Assembly: GCA_963692935.1 (NCBI GenBank)
Contig: OY843588.1
Location: 1,699,989 to 1,763,988, forward strand
Reading direction: 5' to 3'
Source: Nitrospirales bacterium
Lineage (GTDB): Bacteria; Nitrospirota; Nitrospiria; Nitrospirales; UBA8639
Length of the DNA: 64,000 nucleotides
Shown here: positions 7,276 through 53,344 of the stretch, piece after piece
Layout of the letters: every line of letters starts with the position of its first letter
Position numbering within the stretch: the stretch's first letter is position 1
Position numbers and translations under genes: made by a program
The notes under the pieces: generated by a model
Told to the model about the DNA's origin: nothing
The model's database searches: none
Seen by the model: the letters and a program-made list of their open reading frames with translations, nothing else

Positions 7276-7484
7276 AGCTCCACGGCTTCAAGCAACCCTC
7301 GCAGATGTTCGTCGTGCCCGGCTACCCGCAACAGATCGGATAAATCAAATTTCCCGCGCAACTGATACACCGTCGGTCGTTTGTCGTATTCCGGCCAAAC
7401 CTTCCGCAACAACCTTATCGCCTCCTCCGCTTGAATTGGCCGACGCTCATTTCCTGGATGTAGCCGAAACAAAAGACCTTCCAA
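7260..7484 (-). CDS. Small hypothetical protein (74 aa), possibly the C-terminal remnant of a partner gene of the upstream ATPase
   Basis: The only possible start is TTG, with no in-frame ATG. It lies 19 nt downstream of the ATPase stop and overlaps the pentapeptide start by 16 nt. The amino-acid composition is protein-like (MEGLLFRLHPGNERRPIQAEEAIRLLRKVWPEYDK...). Confidence 0.35.
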   Translation of the reverse strand: MEGLLFRLHPGNERRPIQAEEAIRLLRKVWPEYDKRPTVYQLRGKFDLSDLLRVAGHDEHLRGLLEAVELWKQG

Positions 7485-7503
7485 GTCGCCCGCGCATGGT
7501 CAC

Positions 7504-8691: not shown

Positions 8692-8697
8692 ATCGTG

Positions 8698-8726
8698 ATT
8701 GTAACGTTATTCTGTTGAGATGGCAA
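8698..8726 (-). promoter_or_regulatory. Sigma70-like promoter for the ATPase-to-res unit, implying a leaderless or very short-leader mRNA
   Basis: The minus strand reads TTGCCA, then 17 nt, then TACAAT, then cacgat, then ATG at 8691. No Shine-Dalgarno sequence lies between the -10 box and the ATG. Confidence 0.45.
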
Positions 8727-8924
8727 TATATTGCAAATTTTAGAATGAATACTTAAACACACACCGCTCGTTCGTGTATAGATACAAAATTTCCCTGCCT
8801 TGCCATTCCTGCGAAATTATCTGTTCCTAGGCCCGACCAGCGGCAGGAAATTTGTATGAGGATATTCTTTGACTTGGAAAAGAGAGAAGGAAAATGACGG
8901 GTCGAGGGGAGGGGGATCGGAAAA

Positions 8925-9062
8925 GGAATGACAGATTGCAATACCCCTCACTCCGTCATTCCCGCAACAGCGAGAGCCCAGAATCGCACCATACCGGTAC
9001 TGGAGAGTTTGGGGAAAAGGACAGATGACAAAGCCTGTATTCCTGCTTTGCACAGGAATGAC
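8925..9062. repeat. Cluster of short hairpin-forming repeats sharing a GGAATGAC/GTCATTCC core (REP-like)
   Basis: ggaatgac (8925-8932) pairs with gtcattcc (8955-8962). attcctg (9039-9045) pairs with caggaat (9053-9059), followed by ggaatgac at 9055-9062. Related copies lie at 42976-42996 and 44993-45009. Confidence 0.5.
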
Positions 9063-9165
9063 GGGCGGGGGTGTGCGAACTTGGCATATCTCAAAGAAGG
9101 GTTACTTCATTTCGTAAATTTTTGCGAGATTGAACAACGATTTCATTCCTGATCCTGGTCACGTT

Positions 9166-10086
9166 TTACCCAAACCTACAGCTCGCCCATGCGGCATTTG
9201 TCCATGTCTTCACTCTATCTAATACCTTCTTATTGATGTTGTCACTGAAATCAACAATCCGACAGCGATCAAACAGCAAGCCTCCCTCATCGACGGTTTT
9301 ATGCCAACGATCTTCGGGCAAAGCCTCTGCAACAAAAAACATGCGAACAGGGGTAAGAGGGATGGGGGAATGCATCCAGTTTGCACAAAATGAGTCAGGC
9401 CGCATATGGGTGAGTGCGTCCTCGTAGTTGGTCCCAGTCTTACACTGACCAAAAGCAATGAGTTTCCCTGCCTTGCCATCGGTAAAGCGTTTCCAAACGA
9501 CAACATCCAATTTCCCGTCCTTCGGATTCGATGATGTCTCGAAGTACTTCTCAAAACGGCCACCCTCTTTCAGTCGCTTGCAAAGGTTGTTGACCTTATG
9601 TGGAAAACTCGGCATCCCAGCAGCGGTGCCAAACACAAGGCTCTCGGCACGATTACCAAAATATTCTCGAGCTACTTCTGCAGCGAGTTCTTCGAAAAGT
9701 AGCGTGCCATCAATACCCGCGTGAAGTCTGTTGGTGCCCATATCCAGCCGGGTTGCCAGGAGCAGATATTTGTAAATGATGTATCTACGGTTTGCGGGAG
9801 CATGATCGACGTAGAGCGAGTATCCCTGATCGCCAACCACAAACGGATAACCCTCCCTACACGCTTTCTCGCGTTTCTCAATCTCCCCGTACGCTTCGTG
9901 CACTTCGCCAACCTGTGGATCTTCTTCTGGCACACCGCCAGCGTAGTCGTTGTCTTCAAGCCGACTGATATCCTGGGACAAAGCAGTCACCGACGTACCA
10001 TTGTCCCGCCAACAAACCAGCTCGGCAAAATCGCCAACTTCGTGAGCAGGTGCACGAACACTTGGTGTCCCAGGCCATTTGAACAT
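9166..10086 (-). CDS. Predicted PD-(D/E)xK (Mrr-type) nuclease-fold protein of unknown family
   Basis: 306 aa. The core reads FEELAAEVAREYFG (E132/E133) ... KDGKLDVVVWK (D194) ... FGQCKTG (Q214-x-K216), with the spacing and hydrophobic pattern typical of restriction-endonuclease-like folds. The start overlaps the stop of the ParB-like gene by 1 nt. Confidence 0.55.
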   Translation of the reverse strand: MFKWPGTPSVRAPAHEVGDFAELVCWRDNGTSVTALSQDISRLEDNDYAGGVPEEDPQVGEVHEAYGEIEKREKACREGYPFVVGDQGYSLYVDHAPANRRYIIYKYLLLATRLDMGTNRLHAGIDGTLLFEELAAEVAREYFGNRAESLVFGTAAGMPSFPHKVNNLCKRLKEGGRFEKYFETSSNPKDGKLDVVVWKRFTDGKAGKLIAFGQCKTGTNYEDALTHMRPDSFCANWMHSPIPLTPVRMFFVAEALPEDRWHKTVDEGGLLFDRCRIVDFSDNINKKVLDRVKTWTNAAWASCRFG

Positions 10087-11192
10087 CAGTTGTCTTCTGC
10101 AATACGCTGTTTTTTCCCAGGATTGTGCTTGCGTTCCATCTCCCTGTAGAGATCATCCGCAAGATTTGCCACCGTGCCAGCGATTTTTAACGTTTCCCCG
10201 GAATTGTCATAGCCTGTGGAAAGCATGCCCCGTGCCGTCTGAAGTTGTTGTTTCGCATTAAAGAGCGAGTCCTCGAAAACCGCGGATGACGGGCGGGTCA
10301 CCTCAAGAGCAGCGTCAAGGGTATCTCCAGCACGTAGGGTAGCAATGGCTTCTTTGCTGGCTACGACAGCATCAAGATACCGAAGATGCGGGTTTTGTTT
10401 CTGAACAACGGGAAGTTTATCATCTCGCTTGCTACCATACAGCCAGAGGCAAAGCTCACCGAGTTCTTTTTTCTTCTCTGGAGGGACAGGTGCCCGATCA
10501 TCTTCAGTATCTGATTGCAAACCGATAAAGGCACTGATGCCAGAGTAGGTGACGCCCGTGTACAGATGGGAGAACGAGAAATGCTTGTTCCAGCGATCGT
10601 CGCGATTGAATACCTTCAGTTTTTCTGCTTGCTCAATGATCATCAGACCTTGGAACAGTCTCTGGACGGTCTTGTGAGTATCGCCAATCTGATTCGCGAT
10701 ATCTTCAAGGCTGACATCGTAGTTGGTGTGCACCTCGGCGATGTAGCGAGCTTTAGCGTAACTGCTCCATTTGGCCGGGCCGTTCACATGCTTGAAACCG
10801 AGATAACGCCAGACACGTTTACGCTTTTCAAGCACAGCGGGAAGTGTTTGGAGTGCTTCCCTGGCTTCCCTATTGATACGAGGAACACCTGCCCGTTGGA
10901 CTTCGGTAAGTAGGGCTGGGTCCAGAAGTACTTTGACCGCGGCAAGACGACGATTCCCTTCAATAACAATGTTCTTTCCATCCTCCTGCTCAACGATCAC
11001 GGGTTCGTGGCGAAAGAACCCGCTGGTTCCGATGGACAGCACCAGTTCTTTTACATCCATCGCATCCCATAGAATTTTTATCACTTCTTTATCTGTTGCG
11101 CTGTCGGACAGGTTAAATTCCGGCAGTCTGGGATTCTTGAGATCGAATGCCAGATCCGAAACTTTCATCTCCGTGATTTTGGGGACATTCAT
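10086..11192 (-). CDS. ParB N-terminal (ParB/Srx) domain protein with a central HTH-like segment
   Basis: 368 aa. The N-terminus MKVSDLAFDLKNPRL is followed by IVIEGNRRLAAVKVL, which resembles the ParB GxxRxxA box. An HTH-like stretch reads SLEDIANQIGDTHKTVQRL. The gene overlaps the MTase stop by 4 nt. Confidence 0.65.
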   Translation of the reverse strand: MNVPKITEMKVSDLAFDLKNPRLPEFNLSDSATDKEVIKILWDAMDVKELVLSIGTSGFFRHEPVIVEQEDGKNIVIEGNRRLAAVKVLLDPALLTEVQRAGVPRINREAREALQTLPAVLEKRKRVWRYLGFKHVNGPAKWSSYAKARYIAEVHTNYDVSLEDIANQIGDTHKTVQRLFQGLMIIEQAEKLKVFNRDDRWNKHFSFSHLYTGVTYSGISAFIGLQSDTEDDRAPVPPEKKKELGELCLWLYGSKRDDKLPVVQKQNPHLRYLDAVVASKEAIATLRAGDTLDAALEVTRPSSAVFEDSLFNAKQQLQTARGMLSTGYDNSGETLKIAGTVANLADDLYREMERKHNPGKKQRIAEDN

Positions 11193-12043
11193 CGTCTTCT
11201 CCTTACAGGGAGTTGTACATAAGACGGCGTGATCAGGAGCTCCTGTGTCTGTCGCTTTCGTTGGAAGCTGTACTGGATTGGGAGACGGGAGATGGCACAG
11301 GTCGTATACATCTTTTCAATAGGGGGAACATCATCGTAAGACATGACCCATTTGAGTATGCGGTATCGTCGTACATAGCAAGCCAGTTGCCGGTGGTCAC
11401 AATCCTCGTAGAAATCCCGATAGAGGCGATTCCCGTTTGAATGATACGGAGGGTCAAGATATACAAAGGCTTGTTTCCTGCCACGCCCACGGGGCAGTTC
11501 CTTAACCAAGAACTTAATGGCGTCTTCATTAGATATGTGAATTTGCTTTCGTTTTTGCGCGATCATGCTGACTCGCTTGGCGAGGGCCTTCCGATAAAAA
11601 CGAGCATTTATTTTCCATTCCCCTGTTTGCCTGTAGCCCCCAATGGGAGCAGATCCAACCAGACCCCCCGAATGATTGCAACGATTCAGGTAGAAGGTGG
11701 AGAAGCCAAGTTCAAAGGGCTTACTGGCGTCACCACGTTCGCTGACACACAATTGCCTCTTCCATTCCGCAACACTCACTGGAACCGACAGAATCTTTTT
11801 TGCAAACCGATCTGATTCATCAAGAACAGACCGCCAGAAAGTCGTGATACGAGGATTGTAGTCGTTCAGATAAATCTCCGAGACGACACCTTTGCGAAGA
11901 AGGTGTAACGCGGCACCGGCCCCACCAGCAAACGGCTCATAGTAGGTGCAACCGGAGAGTTTGTTCTGTTCGATTATCTGAGCAAGGAAATTTGCAATTG
12001 ACGACTTTCCCCCCGGATACCTGAGTGGGCTGTCATATTGCAT
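11189..12043 (-). CDS. Dam-like N6-adenine DNA methyltransferase (D12 class, alpha order)
   Basis: 284 aa. Diagnostic blocks are LRYPGGKS, the SAM motif EPFAGGAG, and the catalytic motif YLDPPY. A GAGG ribosome-binding site lies about 11 nt upstream of the ATG. Confidence 0.88.
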   Translation of the reverse strand: MQYDSPLRYPGGKSSIANFLAQIIEQNKLSGCTYYEPFAGGAGAALHLLRKGVVSEIYLNDYNPRITTFWRSVLDESDRFAKKILSVPVSVAEWKRQLCVSERGDASKPFELGFSTFYLNRCNHSGGLVGSAPIGGYRQTGEWKINARFYRKALAKRVSMIAQKRKQIHISNEDAIKFLVKELPRGRGRKQAFVYLDPPYHSNGNRLYRDFYEDCDHRQLACYVRRYRILKWVMSYDDVPPIEKMYTTCAISRLPIQYSFQRKRQTQELLITPSYVQLPVRRRR

Positions 12044-24884: not shown

Positions 24885-27119
24885 ATGTCTGTAGAACCGG
24901 ATATTATTTACACAAAAGTTGACGAAGCTCCTGAACTGGCGAGTGGCTCGTTTCTGCCTGTGATCCAGGCCTTTGCCAAAACGGCGGATGTGATCATTGG
25001 CAGAAAAGATATTTCACTGGCCGGTCGCATCATTGCGCAATTTCCCGACAACCTGAAGCCGGCACAACGGCAACCCGATGACCTCGCCTTCCTGGGAACA
25101 CTGGTAGAGAAACCGGAAGCCAATGTGATCAAGCTGCCGAATATCAGCGCCTCGATTCCTCAAATCAAAGCCGCCGTGGCCGAATTGCAAGCCCAGGGAT
25201 ATGCCATTCCCGACTACCCGGAAGATCCCAAAACGGATCAGGAGAAAGCCATCAAAGCCAAATTTGACAAGGTGAAAGGTAGCGCGGTCAACCCTGTGCT
25301 GCGGCAAGGCAATTCCGACCGCCGGGCCTCCGCCTCCGTGAAACAATATGCCCAAAATAATCCGCACAAGATGGGAACATGGGCCAGGGATTCTCAAACA
25401 CACGTGGCGCACATGAACGAGGGCGATTTTCGCGCGAATGAAGTGTCCGCCACGATCACCGGACACACCGCCGGAACGGGCCGCATCGAATTTGTGGCGG
25501 AAGACGGGAGTATCCGGAAACTGAAGGATAAGCTGTCTCTGAACGAAGGCGATGTGGTTGATGCGACCATGATGAGCCGCCGGGCATTACGTCAATTCCT
25601 GAAAGAGCAGATACGCGACACCGGCAAGCAGGGCGTCCTGTTATCGCTGCACATGAAAGCCACCATGATGAAAGTCTCGGATCCGATCATTTTCGGGCAC
25701 GCGGTCACGGTGTATTTTGAAGACGTGTTCACGAAACATGACGCCGTCCTGACACAACTCGGCGTCAATCCCAATAACGGGCTGGGCGATGTGTATGCCA
25801 AAATCGGCGTCCTGCCTGCCGCTCAACAGGACGCCATCAAAGCGGACATTGCCGCCGCGCTGAAGAACGGGCCGGACCTCGCCATGGTGGACTCCGACAA
25901 AGGCATCACGAACTTCCACGTGCCCAGCGATATTATTATTGACGCATCCATGGCCGCGGCGCTTCGAAGCTCCGGGAAAATGTGGGGGGCCGATGGCAAG
26001 GAACATGACACCAAAGCGATGATCCCGGACAGGAGTTATGCCGGCATTTATCAGGCCGTCGTTGATTTCTGTCGCGAGCACGACGCATTTAATCCGGCCA
26101 CGATGGGCAGTGTGCCCAACGTGGGGCTTATGGCACAAAAAGCTGAGGAATACGGGTCGCACGACAAAACCTTTGAGGCGCCGGACAAGGGCACCATCCG
26201 CATCATGGATGGAGCCGGCAAGGTTCTGCATCAACACCACGTCGAAAAAGACGATATCTGGCGCGCGTGTCAGACCACAGACATCGCGGTGAAAGACTGG
26301 GTCAAGCTGGCCGTCAATCGTGCGCGAAACTCTTCGACCCCGGTGGTGTTCTGGTTGGATAAGACGAGAGCCCATGACGTGCAGATCCTGGAAAAAGTGC
26401 ATCGTTATCTGAAAGATCACGAGACCGGGGGCCTGGATATTCAGATGATGGCGCCGGTGGAGGCGATGAAGCACACGCTCCAACGGGCCAAAGACGGGCA
26501 CAACACCATTGCCGCGACAGGGAACGTGTTGCGGGATTACCTCACCGACCTGTTTCCCATCCTGGAACTGGGCACCAGTGCCAAGATGCTCTCCATCGTG
26601 CCCCTCATTCGCGGCGGCGGATTATTTGAAACAGGCGCCGGCGGTTCAGCCCCGAAACATGTGCAACAGTTTCTCAAAGAAGGGCATCTGCGATGGGATT
26701 CTCTTGGCGAATTCCTCGCGTTGGCGGAATCCTTTGCCCACCTGGGCCGCACCCGTGGCAATAAAAAAGCGCAAGTCCTTGCGGAGACCCTGGACCGCGC
26801 CACGGGCACACTCATGGAAAACCGCAACGCGCCCGGGCGAGTACTCGGCGAACTGGATAACGCTGGAAGCCATGTCTATGAAGCGTTGTACTGGGCACAG
26901 GAGCTGGCCGCGCAAAATGACGATCCGGCGTTAAAGCAGAAATTTGCTCCGGTGGCACAAGCGCTCGCGGACAAACTCAACCAGATTCTCGACGAGCTGA
27001 AAGCTGCGAAAGGCAAGCCGATGGACATCGGCGGGTACTACCACCCCGATCTGGCACGGGTCAAAACCGCAATGCGGCCGAGTGCGACCTTCAACGCCAT
27101 TCTGGACGGTCTGGGATGA
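24885..27119 (+). CDS. icd: Monomeric NADP-dependent isocitrate dehydrogenase (about 740 aa type)
   Basis: The sequence starts [20 protein letters not shown], followed by [17 protein letters not shown] ribosome-binding site lies upstream of the ATG at 24885. Confidence 0.92.
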
Positions 27120-27157
27120 GTGGGGAATCGCAATAACAGACAGAAAAGGAATACAGC

Positions 27158-28177
27158 ATGGCAGAAAATATCAATTGCTTTGTCTTTCGCACAGATAGCA
27201 ACGCTTTCGTCAAGAAAGAATTGCGAGAAGGTCGCTTACGCCAGGGTTGGTCGCCCCAAGGCACATCTCTGGTGAATGCCACGACAGGCAATGTGCGTGA
27301 AAGAGATGAATGGAAGCAAGCATACAAGGATGCTTGGCAGGAAGACCCAAGCCCCAGGCGTTATGGTTTATTGCGCCGTATGTTGGATATGAAGAAGGGG
27401 GATCTGGTTTTTTGCCCCAAAGTTCCAGAGGAGGATTGCTTCACAATTGTCACAGTGAGCGAGAAATATCGATTTGAAATGGCTCCAGGCAAGTGTGATT
27501 TTGGGCACATCATTCCCGTAGAAAAAAACCAGACAGTGGTCAAAAACTGGGATAACGTCGATGCCCGGACGATCCATGAGTTGTTCGACAGCGCTTATTT
27601 CTGGTCACCGGTTACCCAGATTCAAGACCACAAGAGAGAACGCGTGCTTAAAGCAACGAAACAGTTACTGGAAAACAAGAATAAGCTCGACACGCAGCCT
27701 CAAGACCGTAGTGGCATCAGGGAACAACGTTTCGCAATGGCTAGACAAAACGCCTCGGAATTCTTAATGAAATTGGTCAATGAAAGCTGGGGGCATGACC
27801 AGTTTGAGGACACCGTAAGAGTAGCCTTCGAGGAAAAAGGATATGAGCACATCTCAAGCAAAAATTTTCAGAAAGGAGGTGCAGATGCAGATCATGTGTT
27901 CGTACTTCCCGTGCCAGGCTTTAAAAACTTGGATGTAGTGCCGATCCCTCGATATCTCCTCCTTGTCCAAGTTAAGCACAAACAGGGTGAGGACCCGGAA
28001 GATCGTAAAGGGGTGGAGCAACTGATCAAATGGAAGCCGACCAATGACGAAGATCAAGTGGCATACAGGATATTGTTCAGTAGCGCACCGTCTTTCACCG
28101 AGCAGTGCAAAAATCTCGCGGAGACGCACAACGTCTTGCTGCTATGCGGTCTAGACGCCGGTTTGTTCTTACTCTGA
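27158..28177 (+). CDS. Mrr-like PD-(D/E)xK nuclease with an uncharacterised ~170-aa N-terminal domain (type IV restriction candidate)
   Basis: 339 aa. The C-terminal core reads FEDTVRVAFEEKGYEH...GGADADHVFVL...LLLVQVKHK (E...D...QxK). The N-terminal domain contains GRLRQGWS and KKGDLVFCP and looks like a PUA/EVE-type reader module, but that assignment is tentative. A hand-counted line is about 40% GC. Confidence 0.6.
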   Translation: MAENINCFVFRTDSNAFVKKELREGRLRQGWSPQGTSLVNATTGNVRERDEWKQAYKDAWQEDPSPRRYGLLRRMLDMKKGDLVFCPKVPEEDCFTIVTVSEKYRFEMAPGKCDFGHIIPVEKNQTVVKNWDNVDARTIHELFDSAYFWSPVTQIQDHKRERVLKATKQLLENKNKLDTQPQDRSGIREQRFAMARQNASEFLMKLVNESWGHDQFEDTVRVAFEEKGYEHISSKNFQKGGADADHVFVLPVPGFKNLDVVPIPRYLLLVQVKHKQGEDPEDRKGVEQLIKWKPTNDEDQVAYRILFSSAPSFTEQCKNLAETHNVLLLCGLDAGLFLL

Positions 28178-44462: not shown

Positions 44463-45180
44463 ACGCCGGGCAAGCGCGTAGGTATCAAACCCGGGCCTGT
44501 TCTGGCAACACGCAGACCAGGATGCAGACGATCGAAAAGATCTTGGTGTACGACAACCAGGACCCCACGCGCCCCCGGACACAGTCTCCTTTATCTCGCA
44601 AACCAGCATCGGTTGCAGAGGGTAAATCGTACTCGTGGCTTCACACGCGGATTGGCTTCCCGCTGGCACGGTGCGGATTTGCTGACGGGAAACAGGCAGG
44701 ACAATTTCACGAAGAGGCCCCAAACGTTCTCCGCTGTCATGCCGTTTCCACGACAGATTTTTTCGTTGAACGCTGACTGGCATGACCACACCGCCACGCA
44801 ATTCTCGCGAAGGCTTCGGCGTCCCAAGTCGGCACATGATATATTGCAAGGTTCAACTCATCGACATTCATGGCCGGGATTCGTCGAACGTTCGCCCATG
44901 CGACGGCCGGCATGACTTCCCATCAAACCGCTATTGATGAATCAGCCCACAGGCCAGGGTGCGTCGTATGCACTGGGTCCAACAGGTGGCGGGTCATTCC
45001 GGCAACAGGATACGTTGCACATGGCCGGATTGACCGGAGCACGTCGGCGGACAGAGCAACGGCGATGGGAGGACATCCCGCCATTGACCACACAGATACT
45101 CATGGAGTACGTGGTCGCACCTGTGGTAGCATATTCTCCGTTGAAGCCAAAGGGCCTCGCCGCGAAGCAAACCCACCATC

Positions 45181-45678
45181 ATGACCAGGGAACCGGTATC
45201 GCAACAGCAGGTCGACAACGCATTCATGCAGGACGCGCTTATGGACGCCGCCCGGGCCGCGTCGCGTGGCGATGTGCCCGTGGGAGCGGTGCTCGTGCAC
45301 GACCACTCCATCATCGCCCGTGGGGGAAACGCCAGGGAACGCGAACAGGACCCAACAGCCCATGCGGAACTCATGGTGATTCAGGACGCCGCGCGCACGT
45401 TGCAATCATGGCGACTCACCGACACCACACTGTACGTCACATTGGAACCCTGTCTCATGTGTGCCGGCGCCATGCTCCTCGCGCGGATTCCCCGGTTGGT
45501 CTTTGGCGCCTGGGACCCGAAAGCAGGGGCATGCGGCTCATGTTTTTCGGTCCACGAGGATGCGCGATTGAACCACCACATCGCCGTCACCCAAGGCGTT
45601 CGGGAACACGAGTGTCGTGACATGCTTCAGCAATTCTTTCAGCAGGTGAGACACAACCGGCTTGTCGCCATGCCCTGA
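45181..45678 (+). CDS. tadA: tRNA adenosine(34) deaminase
   Basis: The CDA zinc motifs are HAELMVI and TLEPCLMCAGAM. Confidence 0.92.
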   Translation: MTREPVSQQQVDNAFMQDALMDAARAASRGDVPVGAVLVHDHSIIARGGNAREREQDPTAHAELMVIQDAARTLQSWRLTDTTLYVTLEPCLMCAGAMLLARIPRLVFGAWDPKAGACGSCFSVHEDARLNHHIAVTQGVREHECRDMLQQFFQQVRHNRLVAMP

Positions 45679-45703
45679 CAAATCCAACTGACAGCAGCTA
45701 TGC

Positions 45704-45791
45704 GGAGAGGTGCGAGAGTGGCCGAATCGGGCGGTCTCGAAAACCGTTGACTAGAAATGGTCCGTGGGTTCGAATCCCACCCTCTCCGCCA
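45704..45791 (+). tRNA. tRNA-Ser (anticodon CGA) with a long variable arm and encoded CCA
   Basis: The acceptor stem GGAGAGG pairs with CCTCTCC. The anticodon stem-loop is cggt-CTCGAAA-accg. The variable arm is ttgactagaaatggtc, the T-arm is cgtggGTTCGAATcccac, and the 3' end is G-CCA. Confidence 0.9.
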
Positions 45792-45849
45792 ATGTACTCG
45801 AAAAAAATGGAAGAATGACATCGCGGCAGGCAATGGCCAACAAACAGCT

Positions 45850-46860
45850 ATGGCGAATAGAAGCGGGGCAAAATTCACTTTCATAGATTTATTCGCCGGC
45901 ATTGGCGGGATACGAATCGCTTTTGAGCGGGCGGGCGGGAAATGCGTTTTCACTTCTGAATGGGACAAGGCGTGCCAACTGATGTACGTAGCAAATTTTG
46001 GAGAAAAGCCGTTTGGCGACATAACGAAACTAAATGCGGCAGAAATCCCCGACCATGATATTTTGACGGGGGGTTTTCCCTGTCAAGCGTTTAGCATAAT
46101 CGGTAACAAGTTGGGCTTTGCCGATACGAGAGGAACCTTGTTTTTCGAGATTGAGCGAATCTTAAAAGCAAAGCAGCCGAAAGTGTTTTTGCTGGAAAAT
46201 GTCAAGCAACTCACGACGCACGACAAAGGCAGAACTTTCCAAGTGATTCTGGAACGCTTGGAAAATTTGAGCTATTTTGTCCACCACAAAGTACTCAATG
46301 GACTTGATTTCGGTGTTCCTCAAAAGAGAGAGAGAATTATTTTAGTTGGTTTCAAAAAAAATCACCCTTTTGAATTCCCTAAAAATGGCATGGAAGTAAA
46401 AATGCTCTCCGACATTCTGGAGCCGGAAGATCGGATAAATAAAAGGCATTTCCTGAGTGATTATTTCCGAAAAAAACTTGAGCGAAAATTAAGAGAACAA
46501 AACAAAAAAATTACATCTCTCCCCGTGGTGTTACATGAAAATAAAGCAGGCAACATCGGAATCCATCCGTTTTCCTGCGCTTTGCGAACCAACGGCTCAT
46601 ACAACTATGTCACCGTCAATGGCAAACGACGACTTACTCCGCGCGAAATGTTGCGACTGCAAGGCTTCCCCGACACATTTGAAATCGTTGTGCCGGATAC
46701 GCAGGTTAGAAGGCAGGCAGGCAACAGCGTGGTCATCCCAAAGATTGAAACAGTTGCACACGCAATCATTAAAGCGATGAACGCAGAGCCGAGAAATAAG
46801 CCCATGCAAATTGATTTGTTTGACACGAATCAAAAAACACACAAAATATATGCACACTGA
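45850..46860 (+). CDS. dcm: DNA cytosine-5 methyltransferase (first of two)
   Basis: Motif I is FIDLFAGIGG, motif IV is GGFPCQAFS, motif VI is LLENV, motif VIII is QKRERI and motif X is GNSVVIP. The ATG at 45850 lies 59 nt after the tRNA. Confidence 0.92.
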   Translation: MANRSGAKFTFIDLFAGIGGIRIAFERAGGKCVFTSEWDKACQLMYVANFGEKPFGDITKLNAAEIPDHDILTGGFPCQAFSIIGNKLGFADTRGTLFFEIERILKAKQPKVFLLENVKQLTTHDKGRTFQVILERLENLSYFVHHKVLNGLDFGVPQKRERIILVGFKKNHPFEFPKNGMEVKMLSDILEPEDRINKRHFLSDYFRKKLERKLREQNKKITSLPVVLHENKAGNIGIHPFSCALRTNGSYNYVTVNGKRRLTPREMLRLQGFPDTFEIVVPDTQVRRQAGNSVVIPKIETVAHAIIKAMNAEPRNKPMQIDLFDTNQKTHKIYAH

Positions 46861-47911
46861 AAATATCTCAAAATCAGCGTTGGATAAGGTAATACGCAAG
46901 TCACGCGTTCATTTGTATAAACCGATTCAGATCGCGGAAATATTGTTTCATCACAGAACCCAAAAAGAGCTGCGTTTGAAGGACTTGGAATCTTATAGAA
47001 ACAGGTCAAAGCGTTGGCGTGACGAAATATCCGCACTTTTAGTCGGTCGGAAAAGCACTTCAAGCCAAAAATATCAAGACAACATTTTTGAGACCAACGC
47101 GATGCCGGTGGAATTGCTTGCACAACTCGGGAAAATCAACAAAGAAGGCAAAGGCTTTGTCGAAGCGTATATTTACAAAGCGTTGGAAAATCGGCTCTCA
47201 TCGATTCATACAGTTTACAAATATGTCAGTTCGTCGACGGCCGACAATTTTTCCCTCAAGACACTTGTCTCTTCATTTCAAACCATGCCCGGCCTTCGTC
47301 GGAGCATAGACAAGATATACGAAATTTTGGTTTACGCGCTGTTCGCGACAATCGTTCGAACGCTAAAAGCACAAGTAACGTTGGAAATTGAGAACAAAGA
47401 TAAAGAAATTTTGAAAGACTTTGAACGATTCATCAAAATGGTGATGGGAATTGACTCGGAACAAACAAAATTTGTTTTGCCAGCCGCTTTGTATCGAGTT
47501 GGAGTAACCAATGCCGCCGATAGGGGTTTGGACATGTGGGCGAACTTTGGCCCGGCGATACAGGTCAAACATCTCACACTCACGACTGAATTGGCGGAGG
47601 ATATCGCCGACACTATCACCGCCGACAAAATCGTTATCGTTTGCCTTGACACCGAAAGAGAAGTGATTGCATCGCTACTACAACAAGTCGGTTGGGGCAA
47701 GAGAATACAGGGCATTATCACAATCGGAGACTTGGACGATTGGTACAAACTTTGCTTGAACACAAAGTACCGCAATAACCTTGGAGCGGAGTTACTCAAA
47801 GACATAAGCAGGGAGTTTGCAGAGGAATTTCCTTCAAACAAAGAAATCACCCCATTTATGAAGGAGCGAGGCTATGACACCATTGTCATGCCTCATGATT
47901 GGGAATCTTAG
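46850..47911 (+). CDS. Type II restriction endonuclease, HaeII-family-like
   Basis: The N-terminus ALDKVIRKSRVHLYKPIQIAEILFHHR matches my recollection of the HaeII REase family, but I have not verified this. The gene overlaps the MTase stop by 11 nt and is followed by vsr. Confidence 0.55.
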   Translation: MHTENISKSALDKVIRKSRVHLYKPIQIAEILFHHRTQKELRLKDLESYRNRSKRWRDEISALLVGRKSTSSQKYQDNIFETNAMPVELLAQLGKINKEGKGFVEAYIYKALENRLSSIHTVYKYVSSSTADNFSLKTLVSSFQTMPGLRRSIDKIYEILVYALFATIVRTLKAQVTLEIENKDKEILKDFERFIKMVMGIDSEQTKFVLPAALYRVGVTNAADRGLDMWANFGPAIQVKHLTLTTELAEDIADTITADKIVIVCLDTEREVIASLLQQVGWGKRIQGIITIGDLDDWYKLCLNTKYRNNLGAELLKDISREFAEEFPSNKEITPFMKERGYDTIVMPHDWES

Positions 47912-47924
47912 GCTTGATTTTCGC

Positions 47925-48335
47925 ATGGACAAGGTTTCCAAAAAGAAGCGAAGTGAAATTATGTCTCGGGTACTAAGTCGAGATAGCCAAATAGAAATCT
48001 TATTTCGAAAAGAGCTTTGGAAACGAGGTTTTCGTTATCGCAAAAATTCGGGAAAGTATTTTGGAAGGCCGGATGTCGTTTTGCCGAAATACAAAACTGT
48101 TATTTTTATTGATTCATGCTTTTGGCATGGATGCAACAAACATTGCCGTCTTCCGACAACAAGAGCGAGAACATGGGAGAAAAAAATAGCGGGAAACAAA
48201 GCGCGAGATAGATTGGTGAACCGGTACTACAAGAAAACGGATTGGAAAAACATAAGAATTTGGGAACACGATCTAAAGAAGAAAGATTTCAAGTTCGATT
48301 TTAGAGAGATAAGGCGAAAGAAATCGATCTTGTGA
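47925..48335 (+). CDS. vsr: Very-short-patch repair endonuclease
   Basis: Diagnostic blocks are SRDSQIEILFRKELWKRGFRYR, GRPDVVLPKYKTVIFIDSCFWHGC and IRIWEHDL. Confidence 0.9.
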   Translation: MDKVSKKKRSEIMSRVLSRDSQIEILFRKELWKRGFRYRKNSGKYFGRPDVVLPKYKTVIFIDSCFWHGCNKHCRLPTTRARTWEKKIAGNKARDRLVNRYYKKTDWKNIRIWEHDLKKKDFKFDFREIRRKKSIL

Positions 48336-48336
48336 T

Positions 48337-49392
48337 ATGAGCGCAAGCAACAAACTAAAATCCGTGGATTTTTTTTCAGGAGCGGGCGGCTTGACGCACG
48401 GCCTGAAGGCAGCGGGGATTGCCGTTCTCGCCGGAATTGATATTGACAGCTCTTGCAAGGCGACGTTTGAAAAAAATAACAAGGGGGCCGTGTTTCTTGA
48501 AAAAGATATCTCAAAATATTCTCCAGCTGAATTGGAACGGGATTTGAAAATCGAAAAAAACGATGGCAATTTGGTTTTTGCCGGTTGCGCGCCTTGTCAA
48601 TTTTGGAGCCTTATCCAGACAAACAAGGGAAAATCCCGAAAGACCAAGAATCTTATTTGGGATTTTCAAAAATTCATCGAATATTTCAATCCTGGCTTCA
48701 TTGTGGTGGAAAATGTCCCTGGAATTTCCTCGAAGCCGGAAAGTCCAATGGAACAGTTTATTCTTACCCTTGAATCCTCTGGATATAACGTTGCGCACGA
48801 CATTATGGACATGTCTCTGTACGGTATTCCGCAAAAAAGAAAACGTTTTACTTTATTGGCATCTCGCGTTTCAGCCATTTCACTACCAAATCCAACAAGC
48901 AAGGAAACAACCGTCAGGGACGTTCTCGGCACACAAAATGGATTTCCAAAAATCGAAGCGGGCGCAAGAGACGAAACAAGCTTTCTACATACCGCCGCAG
49001 GCTTAAGCAAAAAAAACTTGGAACGCTTGCGAATGACGGAGAAAAACGGCGGAGACAGATCGAATTGGCAAAACAAGAAAGCCTATCAACTGCCTTGTTA
49101 TGCTTCCAGCAAAAAAAAATTCCCCGATACTTACGGTCGCATCTGGTGGGATAAGCCTGCTCCGACAATCACCACAAAGTTTCTCAGCATTAGTAACGGT
49201 CGTTTCGCTCATCCAGCGGAAAACAGGGCTATCTCATTACGAGAGGGAGCGACCTTGCAGACCTTTCCAAAATCTTACAAGTTTGTTGGAACAAGTACGG
49301 GTTCTATCGCAAAAATGATAGGCAATGCCATTCCTCCGAAATTTGCGAAGTTAATCGGAAGACAAATTGTAAGGTCCGCCCAAAAGGTATAA
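48337..49392 (+). CDS. dcm: DNA cytosine-5 methyltransferase (second)
   Basis: Motif I is VDFFSGAGG, motif IV is GCAPCQFWS, motif VI is VVENVPG, motif VIII is QKRKRF and motif X is GNAIPP. The gene starts 1 nt after the vsr stop. Confidence 0.92.
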   Translation: MSASNKLKSVDFFSGAGGLTHGLKAAGIAVLAGIDIDSSCKATFEKNNKGAVFLEKDISKYSPAELERDLKIEKNDGNLVFAGCAPCQFWSLIQTNKGKSRKTKNLIWDFQKFIEYFNPGFIVVENVPGISSKPESPMEQFILTLESSGYNVAHDIMDMSLYGIPQKRKRFTLLASRVSAISLPNPTSKETTVRDVLGTQNGFPKIEAGARDETSFLHTAAGLSKKNLERLRMTEKNGGDRSNWQNKKAYQLPCYASSKKKFPDTYGRIWWDKPAPTITTKFLSISNGRFAHPAENRAISLREGATLQTFPKSYKFVGTSTGSIAKMIGNAIPPKFAKLIGRQIVRSAQKV

Positions 49393-49401
49393 ATTCGCAT
49401 C

Positions 49402-51096
49402 ATGTCGCAAACAACATTACAAATGACATTTGATCCGAATACGATAGAGCATCTTGGTGCTCGCATGTATTCAACTCTACCTCCCGTGTTGTCTGAGCTG
49501 GTCGCCAATGCACACGATGCCGATGCTGAACATGTTGTGCTAACGCTGAAAGACATAAACGGGAAAAAAGAAATCATTGTAGAGGACGACGGGGTAGGCA
49601 TGTCTTTCGATGAAATCAACGACAGGTTTCTGAAAATCGGAAGGAACCGAAGAACGGAAGAGCGAACAAACACCACGCCGAAAGGAAGGCAAATTATCGG
49701 GAAAAAAGGGTTGGGGAAATTGTCGTTTTTCGGCATTGCGCACGAAATAGAAATCGACACACAAAAAGACGGGAAGAGAAATGTTTTTCAGATGAAATGG
49801 GAAGATATCAAAAAATCGACAAAAGCGTATGAACCCCAAATCGTTCACAAAAATAAGGATTGTTCACCGAACAAACATGGTATAAAAATAACATTAAGGA
49901 ATATGCAAAGAAAAACCGATTTCGATCCCAATTCTCTAGCGAACAGCTTATCAAAAATATTTATTGTCGATACCATGTTTGAAGTTTCGATACGACACAA
50001 TACAGAAAAACCAATAGTTGTTTCGAATACAATGAGATACGCCGGCTTGCAAATAGAAGTTGAGTGGAAGATTCCAGATGACTGCGGATACCGAAGCAAT
50101 TATAACAGGGCAAATAAAATCTCTGGGTATTTGATGACGGCAACAAAACCAATACCAACAAACGTGCGGGGAATCGTTCTGTTTTCAAGAAAAAAGATGG
50201 TGAATCAACCCGAATTTTTTTCGGATAGCACATCAAGCCACTTTTTCTCCTATCTGGCCGGATTTCTTGAAGTGGATTTCATAGATGATCTTGAAGATGA
50301 CGTGATAGCGACGAACAGGCAATCCCTAAATTGGGGGCATGAAGAAACTCAAAAACTCCGAACACACTTGCGCGGTCTTATCGGGTGGATGGAAAAAGAT
50401 TGGCGTGACAAACGAAACAGAAAAAGGAAAAAGAATCTGAACGAAAAGACGGGAATAGATATCCCCAAGTGGTTTAGTACGTTGCCCAACGAGATCCGGC
50501 CACAAATCGATCTGGTGATCCAAATAATCACGCAAGACTCGGAATTGACGGAAGGAACAAGCCAAAAGGCCATCAAGGCAATTCATGATATTGTGCCAGA
50601 ATACCCCAAATATCATTGGCGACACTTGCATCGAAAGGTCCAAAATGCATCGGAGACAGATTACAAAAAACAAGACTATTACAGGGCATTTCAAGAAGCG
50701 GTGAAACGGTATATTAATGAGGTGAAAACAAAATCTGAAATCACCGAAAAGAGTGACCAAAGCATGATGGGCCAAGCGTTTGGAAACGACCGAGGCTCAA
50801 TATTGCAAGTTGCAAAAGTTAAAAAACTGGATGGTGATTATTTTAGTGACACGACTAGAAACAATATTGAGGACGGACAAAAATTTTTGTCAATGGGAGT
50901 CGTCTCCGGCTGTCGAAATCCGGTCTGTCACGAGGAAATTGTTGAGTTGAGAGATTCCGGCTTGTTCCGTGAACAAGATTGTCTTGATGCTTTGAGTTTG
51001 TTGTCTCATCTTTTTTACAGACTTGATAATTCAAAAAAAATTAAGGGTCAAGATAACTTGAGCGGGTCTTTTCTGCATGATTTGAGCAGTATTTGA
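49402..51096 (+). CDS. MORC-like GHKL ATPase fused to a C-terminal Ymh/TIGR02391-type domain carrying an R-x4-H dyad
   Basis: 564 aa. The N-box is ELVANAHDA (32-40), G1 is DDGVGM (62-67) and G2 is GKKGLGKLS (100-108). A basic linker reads KDWRDKRNRKRKK. The C-terminal block is YYRAFQEAVKRY...MGQAFG...GQKFLSMGVVSGCRNPVCHEE...ALSLLSHLFYRLD, with R505 and H510. The last 19 codons are read from the IS end. Confidence 0.75.
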   Translation: MSQTTLQMTFDPNTIEHLGARMYSTLPPVLSELVANAHDADAEHVVLTLKDINGKKEIIVEDDGVGMSFDEINDRFLKIGRNRRTEERTNTTPKGRQIIGKKGLGKLSFFGIAHEIEIDTQKDGKRNVFQMKWEDIKKSTKAYEPQIVHKNKDCSPNKHGIKITLRNMQRKTDFDPNSLANSLSKIFIVDTMFEVSIRHNTEKPIVVSNTMRYAGLQIEVEWKIPDDCGYRSNYNRANKISGYLMTATKPIPTNVRGIVLFSRKKMVNQPEFFSDSTSSHFFSYLAGFLEVDFIDDLEDDVIATNRQSLNWGHEETQKLRTHLRGLIGWMEKDWRDKRNRKRKKNLNEKTGIDIPKWFSTLPNEIRPQIDLVIQIITQDSELTEGTSQKAIKAIHDIVPEYPKYHWRHLHRKVQNASETDYKKQDYYRAFQEAVKRYINEVKTKSEITEKSDQSMMGQAFGNDRGSILQVAKVKKLDGDYFSDTTRNNIEDGQKFLSMGVVSGCRNPVCHEEIVELRDSGLFREQDCLDALSLLSHLFYRLDNSKKIKGQDNLSGSFLHDLSSI

Positions 51097-51779
51097 TAGA
51101 TTGTATCGTGGCGATGATTGAACCTGAACTCACACTCTTTGAGGTGCAAGTAAAAGGTCTGCCGGTTCATGCCGCGGAACTTGGCGAGGCGGCTTTTGGC
51201 ATACCCCCAGAACCCCTCAATGCCATTGATGTGAACATGCCCGCGCACAAACTCGTCGGTGCCGTGCGCCACTTTGAAGTGCTTGCCGTAGCCGATATCC
51301 ACCAAGCCATCATAGCCGCGCCAGCTGTCCGAATAGATGACGCTGTCGATGCCCACGCGCCCGCGAATAATGGCTTGGAGCGTGGCTTTGCGGCAGTCCG
51401 GCACGAGTTCGGTATACACTTGGCCGTGGCGTTTGAAGAGGCCGAACACGGCGGTTTTGCCGAACGCTCCGCGTCCGCGTTGGCCTTTGATCCGCCGAGT
51501 GCCGAAGTAGGATTCATCCACTTCAATCTCACCGGCGACCGGCAAGGCGGCATCGCACCAGGCGGCCATGCGCTGGCGCAAAGCGCGCAGGTAACAGTTG
51601 ATCGTGAGGCGGCTGAGGCCGCTGATTTGGGCGATTTGCACGGCGTTCAAATCGAGGGAAAAAAGACGCACCAGCACCCTGAATTTCTTCTCCGAGATTC
51701 GGGAACGGATGATATACCGGTTTTTCATTGCCAATCAAACGGTTATACATCTTTTACTCGCCTTAAGTTATCTTGACCC
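51045..51779 (-). mobile_element. IS1595-family insertion sequence (IS1016-size, 735 bp) with an 8-bp target-site duplication
   Basis: The terminal inverted repeats are GGGTCAAGATAACTT at 51045-51059 and its reverse complement at 51765-51779. The direct repeat AAAATTAA occurs at 51037-51044 and 51780-51787. Confidence 0.9.
51048..51734 (-). CDS. IS1595-family DDE transposase
   Basis: 228 aa. Diagnostic blocks are EIEVDESYFG, GQRGRGAFGKTAVFG, IYSDSWRGYDGL, INGIEGFW and ECEFRFNHR. Confidence 0.9.
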   Translation of the reverse strand: MAMKNRYIIRSRISEKKFRVLVRLFSLDLNAVQIAQISGLSRLTINCYLRALRQRMAAWCDAALPVAGEIEVDESYFGTRRIKGQRGRGAFGKTAVFGLFKRHGQVYTELVPDCRKATLQAIIRGRVGIDSVIYSDSWRGYDGLVDIGYGKHFKVAHGTDEFVRGHVHINGIEGFWGYAKSRLAKFRGMNRQTFYLHLKECEFRFNHRHDTIYQILLKSCRKDPLKLS

Positions 51780-51787
51780 AAAATTAA

Positions 51788-52069
51788 TACATGAAGTTGG
51801 TAACCCGGGCGGTGAATCTCTTTCCGCCAACTTTCCCGTTCGGCCAGCCAGGAGGGAAATTCAAAGTCGAAATTGTCGGTTTCAATAAGTCGCACATTCG
51901 TCCCCGTTATCCTCGTCAGCTGATCTGGTTTCCGCCACGACAATCTCAATCGGTCGCAACGCAACCGCCGCAAAGGGTGCACCCTTGACTCTCCATGTCC
52001 GAAAACGATGCTCCTGGCCAGCCCTCGGATTTGGCACATTCTTTGGAACGATGACGGCTGGATTATCAA
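51788..52069 (-). pseudogene. 5' fragment (about 93 codons) of a gene truncated at the island/IS junction, possibly a DNA methylase N-terminus
   Basis: FEFPSWLAERESWRKEIHRPGYQLH resembles the N-terminal motif of Zn-ribbon-type DNA methylases (...RE....KE..RP.Y..HKWWA), from memory. The similarity stops at about 51791, where GC content drops and the IS target duplication begins. Confidence 0.3.
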
Positions 52070-52087
52070 CGAACAACGTCGAGAGGC

Positions 52088-53344
52088 TTACTGAATCCGG
52101 CGGATTTCTTTGGTCTGCAGTCTGGCAGGAGAAGGCAGAGGCATGACGCCACAGTCCCGAACCGTATCCAAAAGGCGATCCGCCAGGAGACGTTTCGGCA
52201 ATCGCTCGACCTGAATGGCCTGTCCATGACGGGGAAGGAAAATTGCTTCATTGGTATCGCTGCCAAAGGCGGATTGCGCGCCAGTCGCACGGTTAATCAC
52301 AATGAAATCCAAGTCTTTTTGTCGCAGTTTGTTCCGACCGTTGGCGAGCAAATCCCCGGATTCGGCCGCAAACCCGACCAGCACCTGATGCGTGCGTTTC
52401 CGCGACAACGATTCAAGAATATCGGGCGTCCGTTCAAGATCCAGTGGCGCCCCGTTCCATTCGTGTTTTTTGATTTTCGCCGCAGAAGGATGCCGAGGGC
52501 GAAAGTCTCCCACCGCTGCCGTCATGACGAGGACCGTGGCCCAGGAAAACCTGGCATCCAATGCGTGCAACATCTCATCCGCCGTCAGCACGGAAACGAA
52601 TATGACATTGGGAGGAGGCGCCAGCGCCGTCGGCCCGCTGACGAGTACCACTTCCGCCCCGCGCCGGGCCGCGGCTTCCGCTACGGCGTATCCCATTTTC
52701 CCCGATGAGGCATTCGTCATAAAACGAACCGCGTCCACGGGTTCCCGTGTCGGGCCGGCGGAGACGAGCACCCGTTGCCCCGCCCAATCCCGCTGCAGGG
52801 CAAGACAGGCCATCACCGCCTCCATCACCACACGTTCGGCGGGCAACCGTCCTTTGCCCACCAGACCGGATGCCAGTGAGCCTTCTTCCGGCTCCAGGAC
52901 CACCACCCCGCGGTCGCGCATCGTCCGCACGTGAGACACCAGCGCGGGATGGTCCCACATGTCTCCATCCATGGCCGGAGCCATCACGATGGGACAGCGC
53001 GCCGCCAGCAACAGTGTACTCAGCAGATCATCCGCCAGCCCAAGCGCGCATTTGGTCAGGCAGTTCGCTGTTGCCGGAGCCACCAGCACCAGGTCGGCCT
53101 CTTCTGTGGCCCGCAGGTGCGGCATGGGCTCCGCATCGGCAGAGAGATGGTGACACACCGGCTGTCCGGACAACGTTTCAAAGGTCAGGGGCGCCACAAA
53201 CCGCGTCGCGGATGACGTCATGACCACGGACACATCCGCCCCGTCCCCGGTCAATGCCCGAAGCAGTGACACGGCCTTATACGCCGCGATGCTCCCCGTG
53301 ACACCCAGGAGAATCCGCCTGCCCTGTAATACATTCCTGCTCAT
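52088..53344 (-). CDS. coaBC: Bifunctional phosphopantothenoylcysteine decarboxylase/synthetase
   Basis: The N-terminal part reads GRRILLGVTGSIAAYKAVSLLRAL. The CoaB half contains SAGPTREPVDAVRFMTNASSGKMG. Confidence 0.93.
   Translation of the reverse strand: MSRNVLQGRRILLGVTGSIAAYKAVSLLRALTGDGADVSVVMTSSATRFVAPLTFETLSGQPVCHHLSADAEPMPHLRATEEADLVLVAPATANCLTKCALGLADDLLSTLLLAARCPIVMAPAMDGDMWDHPALVSHVRTMRDRGVVVLEPEEGSLASGLVGKGRLPAERVVMEAVMACLALQRDWAGQRVLVSAGPTREPVDAVRFMTNASSGKMGYAVAEAAARRGAEVVLVSGPTALAPPPNVIFVSVLTADEMLHALDARFSWATVLVMTAAVGDFRPRHPSAAKIKKHEWNGAPLDLERTPDILESLSRKRTHQVLVGFAAESGDLLANGRNKLRQKDLDFIVINRATGAQSAFGSDTNEAIFLPRHGQAIQVERLPKRLLADRLLDTVRDCGVMPLPSPARLQTKEIRRIQ

Follow-up and report, generated by a model that had tools for sequence, protein, structure and literature searches.

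We analysed a 64,000-nt stretch of Nitrospirales DNA (contig OY843588.1 of assembly GCA_963692935.1, positions 1,699,989 to 1,763,988 of the forward strand), referred to as the window, with the region from 45.7 to 51.8 kb as the subject of study. This region carries a C5 DNA methyltransferase gene (M2) and, directly downstream, an open reading frame (ORF) encoding a GHKL ATPase module joined to a Ymh domain, here called the GHKL-Ymh gene. Judged by homology, M2 and the ORF at 49402–51096, together with the vsr gene upstream, form a member of the NmeAI/NgoAXIV-type (GHKL + Ymh) class of restriction–modification (RM)-like modules. The genes of the unit and the parts of the GHKL-Ymh protein are as follows.

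47874–48335, + strand: vsr (PF03852, E = 5e-29; TIGR00632, 110.8 bits)
48337–49392, + strand: M2, C5 DNA methyltransferase, 351 aa (PF00145, E = 1.2e-55; motifs I, IV, VI, VIII and X)
49402–51096, + strand: GHKL-Ymh gene, 564-aa ORF (Pfam, TIGRFAM)
49402–50337, + strand: aa 1–312, GHKL (Bergerat) ATPase and S5/transducer-like middle domain of the MORC/HSP90 type (HATPase_c_3, AlphaFold2, Foldseek)
50338–50601, + strand: long basic helix (aa 314–350) and helical linker (aa 351–400) (AlphaFold2 secondary structure)
50602–51044, + strand: Ymh domain (PF09509/TIGR02391), a family of the HEPN superfamily (Pfam and TIGRFAM, above cutoffs)

The M2 methyltransferase and the GHKL-Ymh protein

M2 matched Pfam DNA_methylase over aa 8–345 (model of 324 positions) and TIGR00675 dcm with 137.5 bits against a cutoff of 100.65. 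Motifs I (FSGAGG), IV (PCQ), VI (ENV), VIII (QKRKR) and X (GNA) were all placed, in agreement with an earlier note on this DNA that had named M2 as a second, complete Dcm-type methyltransferase. The tight linkage to the GHKL-Ymh ORF described in that note was also found, with a gap of 9 nt after the M2 stop where the note had counted 10 nt. M2, the probable cognate partner of the GHKL-Ymh gene, was 48–60% identical to M.NgoAXIV, with 60% over the half holding the target-recognition domain. As the published specificity of M.NmeAI and M.NgoAXIV is CCGG methylation, this identity makes CCGG the probable target of M2.

The GHKL-Ymh protein matched HATPase_c_3 at aa 27–160 (Pfam, E = 2.7e-22), and its C-terminal part exceeded the cutoffs of both Hypoth_Ymh (PF09509; aa 407–540, E = 3.9e-15, 56.2 bits against 25) and TIGR02391 (53.5 bits against 39.45), so that both domains predicted in the earlier note were recovered. 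The GHKL motifs and the R505-x4-H510 dyad were located at the residues given there and were conserved in two sets of homologues. Across 120 homologues, E32, N36, D39, D62, G64, G66, the block G100KKGLGKL107, K265, T304-N-R306 and H510 were invariant and R505 was retained in more than 90%, and across 29 more diverse C-termini (37–68% identity) both R505 and H510 were invariant.

An AlphaFold2 model of the full-length protein, built with the 120 homologues (pLDDT 86), comprised a GHKL domain, a mixed alpha/beta second domain, a 37-residue helix (aa 314–350), a helical linker and an all-helical C-terminal domain. The first ~400 residues matched N+M modules of the HSP90 family (HtpG, GRP94, TRAP1) and the ATPase modules of MORC2/3/4 (Foldseek E ~1e-13, ~400 columns), and the matches included MORC2-DNA complexes. 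ATP binding, ATP hydrolysis and ATP-driven dimerisation are predicted for this module, and the T304-N-R306 block may correspond to the HSP90-type catalytic-arginine loop, with which it aligns in sequence logic. The GHKL + S5 module, these structural matches and the Dcm/Vsr association are shared with paraMORC, MORC and HSP90 proteins; Iyer et al. (2008) reported that paraMORCs are associated with Dcm and Vsr genes and stressed a MutL/VSR parallel. In contrast to these proteins, the window protein has no SF2 helicase partner, no CW or coiled-coil chromatin modules and no separate endonuclease of the restriction endonuclease fold, its effector being fused and HEPN-type. Weak matches to sacsin-domain models were also obtained; sacsin is another protein in which HSP90-like modules and a HEPN domain occur together.

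A Ymh match was found in all 29 of the diverse C-termini (best E = 2e-24). The motif R505-N-P-V-C-H510 is encoded at 50914–50931 (codons R505, 50914–50916; H510, 50929–50931), and one homologue subgroup carries the variant R-C-P-I-A-H. The polar residue after R505 (N) agrees with the HEPN pattern R-x4-6-H. The putative HEPN assignment rests on the Ymh profile match, the invariant R-x4-H and the published classification (PMC3710099).

No PD-(D/E)xK, HNH, GIY-YIG, PLD or half-pipe family was matched in the protein by Pfam, NCBIfam or PADLOC, consistent with the earlier observation that it contains no recognisable DNase. The REase_II models of PADLOC matched only aa 1–314. Membership in a PADLOC system was considered and rejected, the matches being limited to these generic N-terminal ones and a weak C-terminal one, in the Ymh domain, to PD-Lambda-3_B; PD-lambda-3 behaves as an abortive-infection (Abi) system, which favours the mechanism proposed below.

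Methyltransferase linkage and relation to known restriction systems

A scan of species-representative genomes yielded 172 relatives, and the neighbourhoods of the best 80 (42–70% identity), from bacteria of many phyla and some archaea, were surveyed. In the protein database the family has at least 2,400 relatives. An M2-like C5-methyltransferase gene was located within 300 nt in 74 of the 80 loci, directly upstream and on the same strand in 67, and neighbour clustering placed a C5-methyltransferase nearby in 78, which substantiates the Dcm adjacency on which the earlier note had staked its interpretation. In the remaining loci, a Vsr gene or an insertion lay between the pair, or the genes were N-terminally cut (contig edge, truncated copy). 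A Vsr gene occurred in about half of the loci (35–40 of 80). Neighbour clustering of the 80 loci revealed no conserved neighbour other than Dcm and Vsr, be it a hidden nuclease or a controller. Because the methylase is nearly constant and no other conserved nuclease accompanies it, the GHKL-Ymh protein is the only candidate for the 'R' of the unit.

One relative, the only locus lacking an M2-like match, departs from this pattern. In L008 (2611–7665), a 249-aa C5-methylase remnant lies beside a DDE transposase, and Vsr and a GHKL-Ymh gene that is intact (554 aa) come next. A toxic restriction gene would not be expected to stay intact where its 'M' is broken, except under the protection of another methylase.

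Mobile elements were also searched. Of three full-length matches in the plasmid set, one belongs to a Burkholderia replicon of 1.4 Mb; the other two come from gonococcal chromosomes that had been wrongly labelled as plasmids. The phage collection contained no full-length copy, only distant paraMORC3-like matches. Those in Escherichia phage PhiR44_1 and Yersinia phage P37 are distant relatives of the GHKL module (26–28% identity over aa 3–329) without the Ymh part (records PV340563.1, 8086–9066; MT239398.1; NC_070907.1, 1111–2142), one being annotated as 'ParaMORC3'.

The architecture of the family, its R-M context and the RNase hypothesis were published between 2008 and 2013. Orlowski & Bujnicki (2008; PMC2441816) described R.NmeAIP as GHKL + Hypoth_Ymh, forming a putative Type II restriction endonuclease (REase) subfamily, and R.HgiDII as GHKL with an unassigned C-terminus. 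Anantharaman et al. (2013; PMC3710099) placed Ymh among the HEPN families and found the Rx4-6H motif conserved in it; they listed it as 'fused to pMORC, in operon with R-M' and suggested that it acts in a manner analogous to PrrC/RloC. The novelty supposed in the earlier note, which knew of no functional description of a Dcm + GHKL-Ymh unit, is not supported in view of these two papers and of the colinear homologue in ngoAXIV.

NmeAI comprises three genes in the order M-R-Vsr, and in N. meningitidis N1568 an insertion sequence (IS) disrupts the R gene. By tblastn, the gonococcal ngoAXIV R gene (L081; N. gonorrhoeae NZ_CP119142.1, 2939–6072) is a colinear homologue with 37% identity over aa 1–546 and the same RNPVxH motif; its frame contains two in-frame stops, after ~aa 282 and ~aa 329, and a Vsr gene lies downstream. 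The methylase of that locus is also split over two frames (aa 4–206 and aa 187–345), and the record, which PLSDB lists as a 'plasmid', is a nearly unannotated chromosome of 2.17 Mb.

The window unit is like NmeAI/NgoAXIV in its colinear R protein, GHKL motifs, RNPVxH motif, C5-methyltransferase partner and Vsr gene in the operon. It differs in its gene order (V-M-R, against M-R-V in Neisseria), in its Nitrospirales-related host, in being joined to a HaeII-type RM pair and in its R gene, which is intact save for an IS-derived C-terminal tail, unlike the gonococcal copy with its two stops. In Neisseria the R gene has been knocked out repeatedly (the gonococcal stops, the IS in N1568) while M and V persist, which is the pattern expected of a toxic restriction-type gene.

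The N-terminal part of the window protein is homologous to that of proven DNA restriction enzymes. NF050001, the model of the BbrUII/HgiDII restriction enzymes, aligned aa 7–378 with profile positions 2–400 of 659 (E = 2e-70), at a score of 238 bits that is far under the family cutoff of 550 and does not indicate full-length membership. BLASTP with a Haloplanus BbrUII-family protein aligned aa 8–378 (31% identity over 411 aa) and nothing beyond aa 378, so the shared helix/linker region extends to ~aa 378. True NF050001 members were recovered from plasmids at 753–794 bits (Haloplanus, L082; Deinococcus, L085), with more distant relatives from Acinetobacter, Pantoea and S. agalactiae. All recovered members of this family adjoin Dcm genes, sometimes with Vsr. 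A pattern E...PWLLDP...GRxD...(D/E)xK was present in the C-terminal 260 aa of five of them, at the following positions.

L082, 5216–5998: HgiDII/BbrUII-family C-terminus
L083, 5188–5880: HgiDII/BbrUII-family C-terminus
L084, 4632–5375: HgiDII/BbrUII-family C-terminus
L085, 4671–5462: HgiDII/BbrUII-family C-terminus
L086, 4689–5471: HgiDII/BbrUII-family C-terminus

With repeated weak NucS and HSDR_N_2 matches, this C-terminus looks like a PD-(D/E)xK nuclease. The corresponding domain was not found in the window protein, where Ymh occupies that region. HgiDII and BbrUII are proven REases (SalI isoschizomers, GTCGAC) with a homologous GHKL ATPase, transducer domain and long helix; as the ATPase chassis is homologous and the C-termini differ (a PD-(D/E)xK-type motif there, Ymh/HEPN here), the HEPN domain sits in the DNase slot of HgiDII/BbrUII. 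The earlier description of the M2 partner as not a conventional REase thus stands for the missing DNase domain but has to be qualified for the N-terminal 380 aa.

These comparisons bear on a reading in which the protein is not a defence effector but a MutL-like accessory of very-short-patch repair, or a chromatin-type DNA compactor, serving Dcm-Vsr. Vsr genes stand beside the pair in 40 of the 80 loci, MutL, also a GHKL ATPase, stimulates gonococcal Vsr enzymes according to the literature, and the parallel drawn by Iyer et al. points the same way. However, Vsr is missing from half of the loci whereas the methylase is almost always there, the invariant HEPN dyad would have no role, Neisseria has kept M and V but lost or broken the gene, and the homology is to proven restriction enzymes. 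We consider this reading very improbable.

A stronger alternative is that the protein is an ordinary ATP-dependent Type II REase, an isoschizomer of NmeAI/NgoAXIV (C^CGG), with an unrecognised active site or a Ymh domain that cuts unconventionally. R.NmeAIP was filed as a putative REase in a REBASE-based classification (PMC2441816), homology to the proven HgiDII/BbrUII enzymes covers the N-terminal 380 aa, and the gene order and tight methylase coupling are those of classic RM. In addition, a January 2026 preprint (10.64898/2026.01.10.698803) reported that genomic CCGG cuts with 5'-CG overhangs are gone once the ngoAXIV and ngoAXIII operons are both deleted, that deleting 'R1.NgoAXIV' or R.NgoAXIII lowers pilin antigenic variation, and that the R1.NgoAXIV deletion also raises growth; it contains no enzymology, domain analysis or purified enzyme. 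The gonococcal gene carries two in-frame stops, and the 'R1' of ngoAXIV corresponds to the GHKL part only, without the transducer Arg loop and without the Ymh domain. R.NgoAXIII is not a detectable homologue of the GHKL-Ymh family, as a single place in the gonococcal chromosome record matches the family. Only with both operons deleted were the cuts reported to be lost, and R.NgoAXIII alone could account for all of them. Since 'R1' is a GHKL fragment and R.NgoAXIII is not detectably homologous, the preprint is weak evidence for DNA cutting by GHKL-Ymh proteins. Pfam, NCBIfam and PADLOC found no DNase domain, and the PD-(D/E)xK domain of HgiDII/BbrUII is missing from the window protein.

HEPN catalysis uses the 2'-OH of RNA, and this established chemistry stands against a Type II REase in which Ymh cuts. 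On balance we regard the Type II REase reading as unlikely; a Ymh domain that is itself the CCGG-cutting DNase, with a chemistry new for HEPN, seems quite improbable.

The low-GC island and the IS1595 insertion

The unit lies in a low-GC island at 45.7–51.8 kb (42% GC against ~58% in the flanks by a GC scan of the window), which also contains a HaeII-family RM pair; the low-GC setting with a second RM system and vsr noted earlier was thus recovered. The remaining features of the island are as follows.

45704–45791, + strand: tRNA-Ser(CGA), left edge of the low-GC island, with GC changing from 0.58 to 0.42 beyond it (ARAGORN)
45757–46860, + strand: M1, C5 DNA methyltransferase, partner of the HaeII-family endonuclease (PF00145, E = 3e-95; TIGR00675, 327 bits)
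46811–47911, + strand: HaeII-family Type II restriction endonuclease (PF09554 RE_HaeII, E = 1e-130; PADLOC REase_II, E = 7e-122)
51045–51779, − strand: IS1595-family insertion sequence, 735 bp, transposase at 51048–51734 (NF033547, E = 1e-46; PF12762)
51788–51794, + strand: displaced native 3' end of the GHKL-Ymh gene (t-aca-tga, completing N548, T549 and the stop)

The five island genes are co-directional and packed and look like a single operon: M1 and the endonuclease overlap by 50 nt (46811–46860), the endonuclease and vsr by 38 nt (47874–47911), and vsr ends 1 nt before M2. The true start of M1 is probably near 45850. Neither a tRNA-derived direct repeat nor an integrase was found at the island boundaries. 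The HaeII site RGCGCY occurred 0 times in the island, where only ~3 were expected. Elsewhere in the window, GC is lowered at 5001–12000 and 27001–28000 (0.48–0.53 against 0.56–0.61 around), and these stretches may be other acquired regions.

A Nitrospirales metagenome-assembled genome (MAG) carries a syntenic locus (L004, OZ242269.1), which aligns with window positions 45001–51040 at 80% and with 52088–52500 at 84% nucleotide identity. The tRNA-Ser site is occupied likewise in L004, where the five genes of the island lie at the matching tRNA-Ser/coaBC position and no IS is present; its M1 counterpart is 86% identical at the amino acid level. Besides the IS, the window has ~308 additional bases (51780–52087). 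As both genomes carry the five-gene island between tRNA-Ser and a coaBC-like gene, vertical inheritance of the low-GC island, without amelioration, is suggested. The dN/dS values against L004 were 0.12 for M1, 0.21 for R.HaeII, 0.11 for Vsr, 0.13 for M2 and 0.21 for the GHKL-Ymh gene. The GHKL-Ymh gene is therefore under purifying selection, at a value equal to that of the adjacent bona fide HaeII endonuclease.

The whole M1-HaeII-Vsr-M2-GHKL/Ymh cassette was also found on a Saccharibacteria contig (L007), and its Vsr-M2-R (V-M-R) part in a Patescibacteria MAG (L001), both at ~73% nucleotide identity. These copies may have arisen by horizontal transfer, as a composite double-RM cassette, or may result from faulty binning.

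The 3' end of the GHKL-Ymh gene is interrupted by the IS1595 element, which is complete, with a 228-aa transposase, perfect 15-bp inverted repeats (GGGTCAAGATAACTT) at 51045–51059 and 51765–51779 and an 8-bp target duplication (aaaattaa) at 51037–51044 and 51780–51787. It is the sole copy in the window, its GC is host-like rather than island-like, and it is missing from L004. The insertion exchanges the last two codons (N548-T549) for a foreign 17-aa tail with a stop at 51094–51096. In-silico removal restored ...LDNSKKINT*, the native C-terminus ...NSKKINT proposed in the earlier note, and a 549-aa protein of homologue length. Since only the last two residues are altered and the 17-aa tail follows the last helix, the gene is probably still active in this genome.

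A proposed RNA-targeting mechanism and its significance

We propose, as the most likely reading and at about even odds, that the GHKL-Ymh protein is the toxic 'restriction' partner of an RM-like module in which unmethylated, probably CCGG, DNA is answered by RNA cleavage. The Abi-type reading with an RNase effector given in the earlier note is reasonable. In the proposed mechanism, M2 would methylate host DNA at C5, probably within CCGG, Vsr would repair the T:G deamination damage arising from this methylation, and the 549-aa partner would act as a toxic 'restriction' subunit neutralised by the methylase. A GHKL-Ymh dimer would close on DNA in an ATP-dependent, MORC-like manner, and unmethylated target sites on incoming phage or plasmid DNA would license the closed state. 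The movement would be relayed via the long helix to paired HEPN domains, whose R-x4-H site would cut RNA (tRNA, rRNA or mRNA) and stop growth, so that the response would resemble abortive infection and DNA would not be cut. Four points of this scheme are inferred: that the protein senses DNA and its methylation, that the target is CCGG, that RNA is cleaved and that the outcome is of the Abi type.

An ATP-driven clamp is the simplest model, given that ATP induces dimerisation of GHKL ATPases, that MORC proteins act as clamps on DNA and that HEPN RNases work as paired domains. The conserved R-x4-H dyad argues for RNA rather than DNA as the substrate because of the 2'-OH chemistry of HEPN enzymes. 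Taken as a whole, an RM system with an RNA-cleavage output, in which a MORC/HSP90-like clamp reads cytosine methylation and switches on a fused HEPN RNase, as an RNase-armed sister of HgiDII/BbrUII, has a chance that we place slightly short of even.

Several observations weigh against this proposal. The REBASE-derived annotation files the family as Type II DNA endonuclease (PMC2441816), and the gonococcal preprint credits the CCGG cuts to R1.NgoAXIV together with R.NgoAXIII. A second AlphaFold2 model, of aa 345–547 only (all-helical, pLDDT 88), had no Foldseek match at E < 1 in the PDB and none in BFVD, with HepT/HEPN toxins (6m6u, 5yep, 7bxo, 7ae6) listed only at TM 0.37–0.44 and probability 0.1–0.2. 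CCGG is not depleted in host or island, and in this genome the foreign tail at the C-terminus could be harmful to the function of the protein. Finally, no element that might read the DNA sequence was found when partner methylases were split into two lineages (56 and 16 loci) and GHKL-Ymh conservation was compared in 15-aa windows: no lineage-specific block was seen, the ratio being 0.79–1.0 throughout.

Other searches in this context were also negative. A PDB sequence-profile search with the 29 C-termini gave no relative, and a Pfam scan of the C-termini at E ≤ 1 gave no other HEPN-clan family. GGCC, GCGC and CGCG, like CCGG, showed no depletion relative to Markov expectation in the island and flanks.

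The two methylase lineages had a core identity of 0.34 between and 0.53 within them, and GHKL-Ymh identity was 0.46 across lineages and 0.50 and 0.47 within. Either both lineages share one target, or the R protein itself does not read sequence. An alternative reading is a guard of the PrrC/RloC style, in which a latent HEPN RNase, for example bound to the methylase, would be freed by phage inhibition or depletion of the methylase or by DNA damage, and which would not read methylation on incoming DNA. This analogy was explicitly proposed by Anantharaman et al. (PMC3710099), methyltransferase and GHKL-Ymh identities co-vary (r = 0.78), and the pairing with two methylase lineages without a segment change fits protein-protein rather than DNA-sequence recognition. 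Like PrrC/RloC, the window protein occurs in an R-M setting and has an ATPase at its N-terminus and a HEPN domain with Rx4-6H at its C-terminus (PMC3710099). Its ATPase, however, is GHKL/MORC-like and not ABC/Rad50-like. PrrC rides on a complete Type I R-M (hsd) system, whereas the partner here is a lone C5 methylase, with only Dcm and Vsr as conserved neighbours and no separate endonuclease in the conserved unit. In addition, the members of the sister family built on this ATPase module are true DNA restriction enzymes. We regard a guard of this kind as distinctly unlikely.

REBASE has listed the family as a 'putative Type II enzyme' from 2008 or earlier. The NmeAI/NgoAXIV systems of pathogenic Neisseria, which have now been implicated in pilin antigenic variation, are built on it. 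New here are the linkage counts in 80 loci, the HEPN-for-DNase swap relative to HgiDII/BbrUII and the dN/dS of 0.21. The locus adds an essentially intact, selectable example and a syntenic relative for comparison, and the domain-swap relationship sharpens the RNA-versus-DNA question. Should the protein cut DNA instead, a HEPN-type or hidden active site would add a new class of nuclease to the Type II enzymes. Should the RNase reading hold, the logic of RM, in which methylation marks self, would be tied to a suicide effector directed at RNA, in a family that is large and horizontally mobile; the textbook divide between 'direct' RM defence and abortive infection would be blurred, and the family would provide a simple bacterial model of MORC-type ATPases that read DNA methylation.

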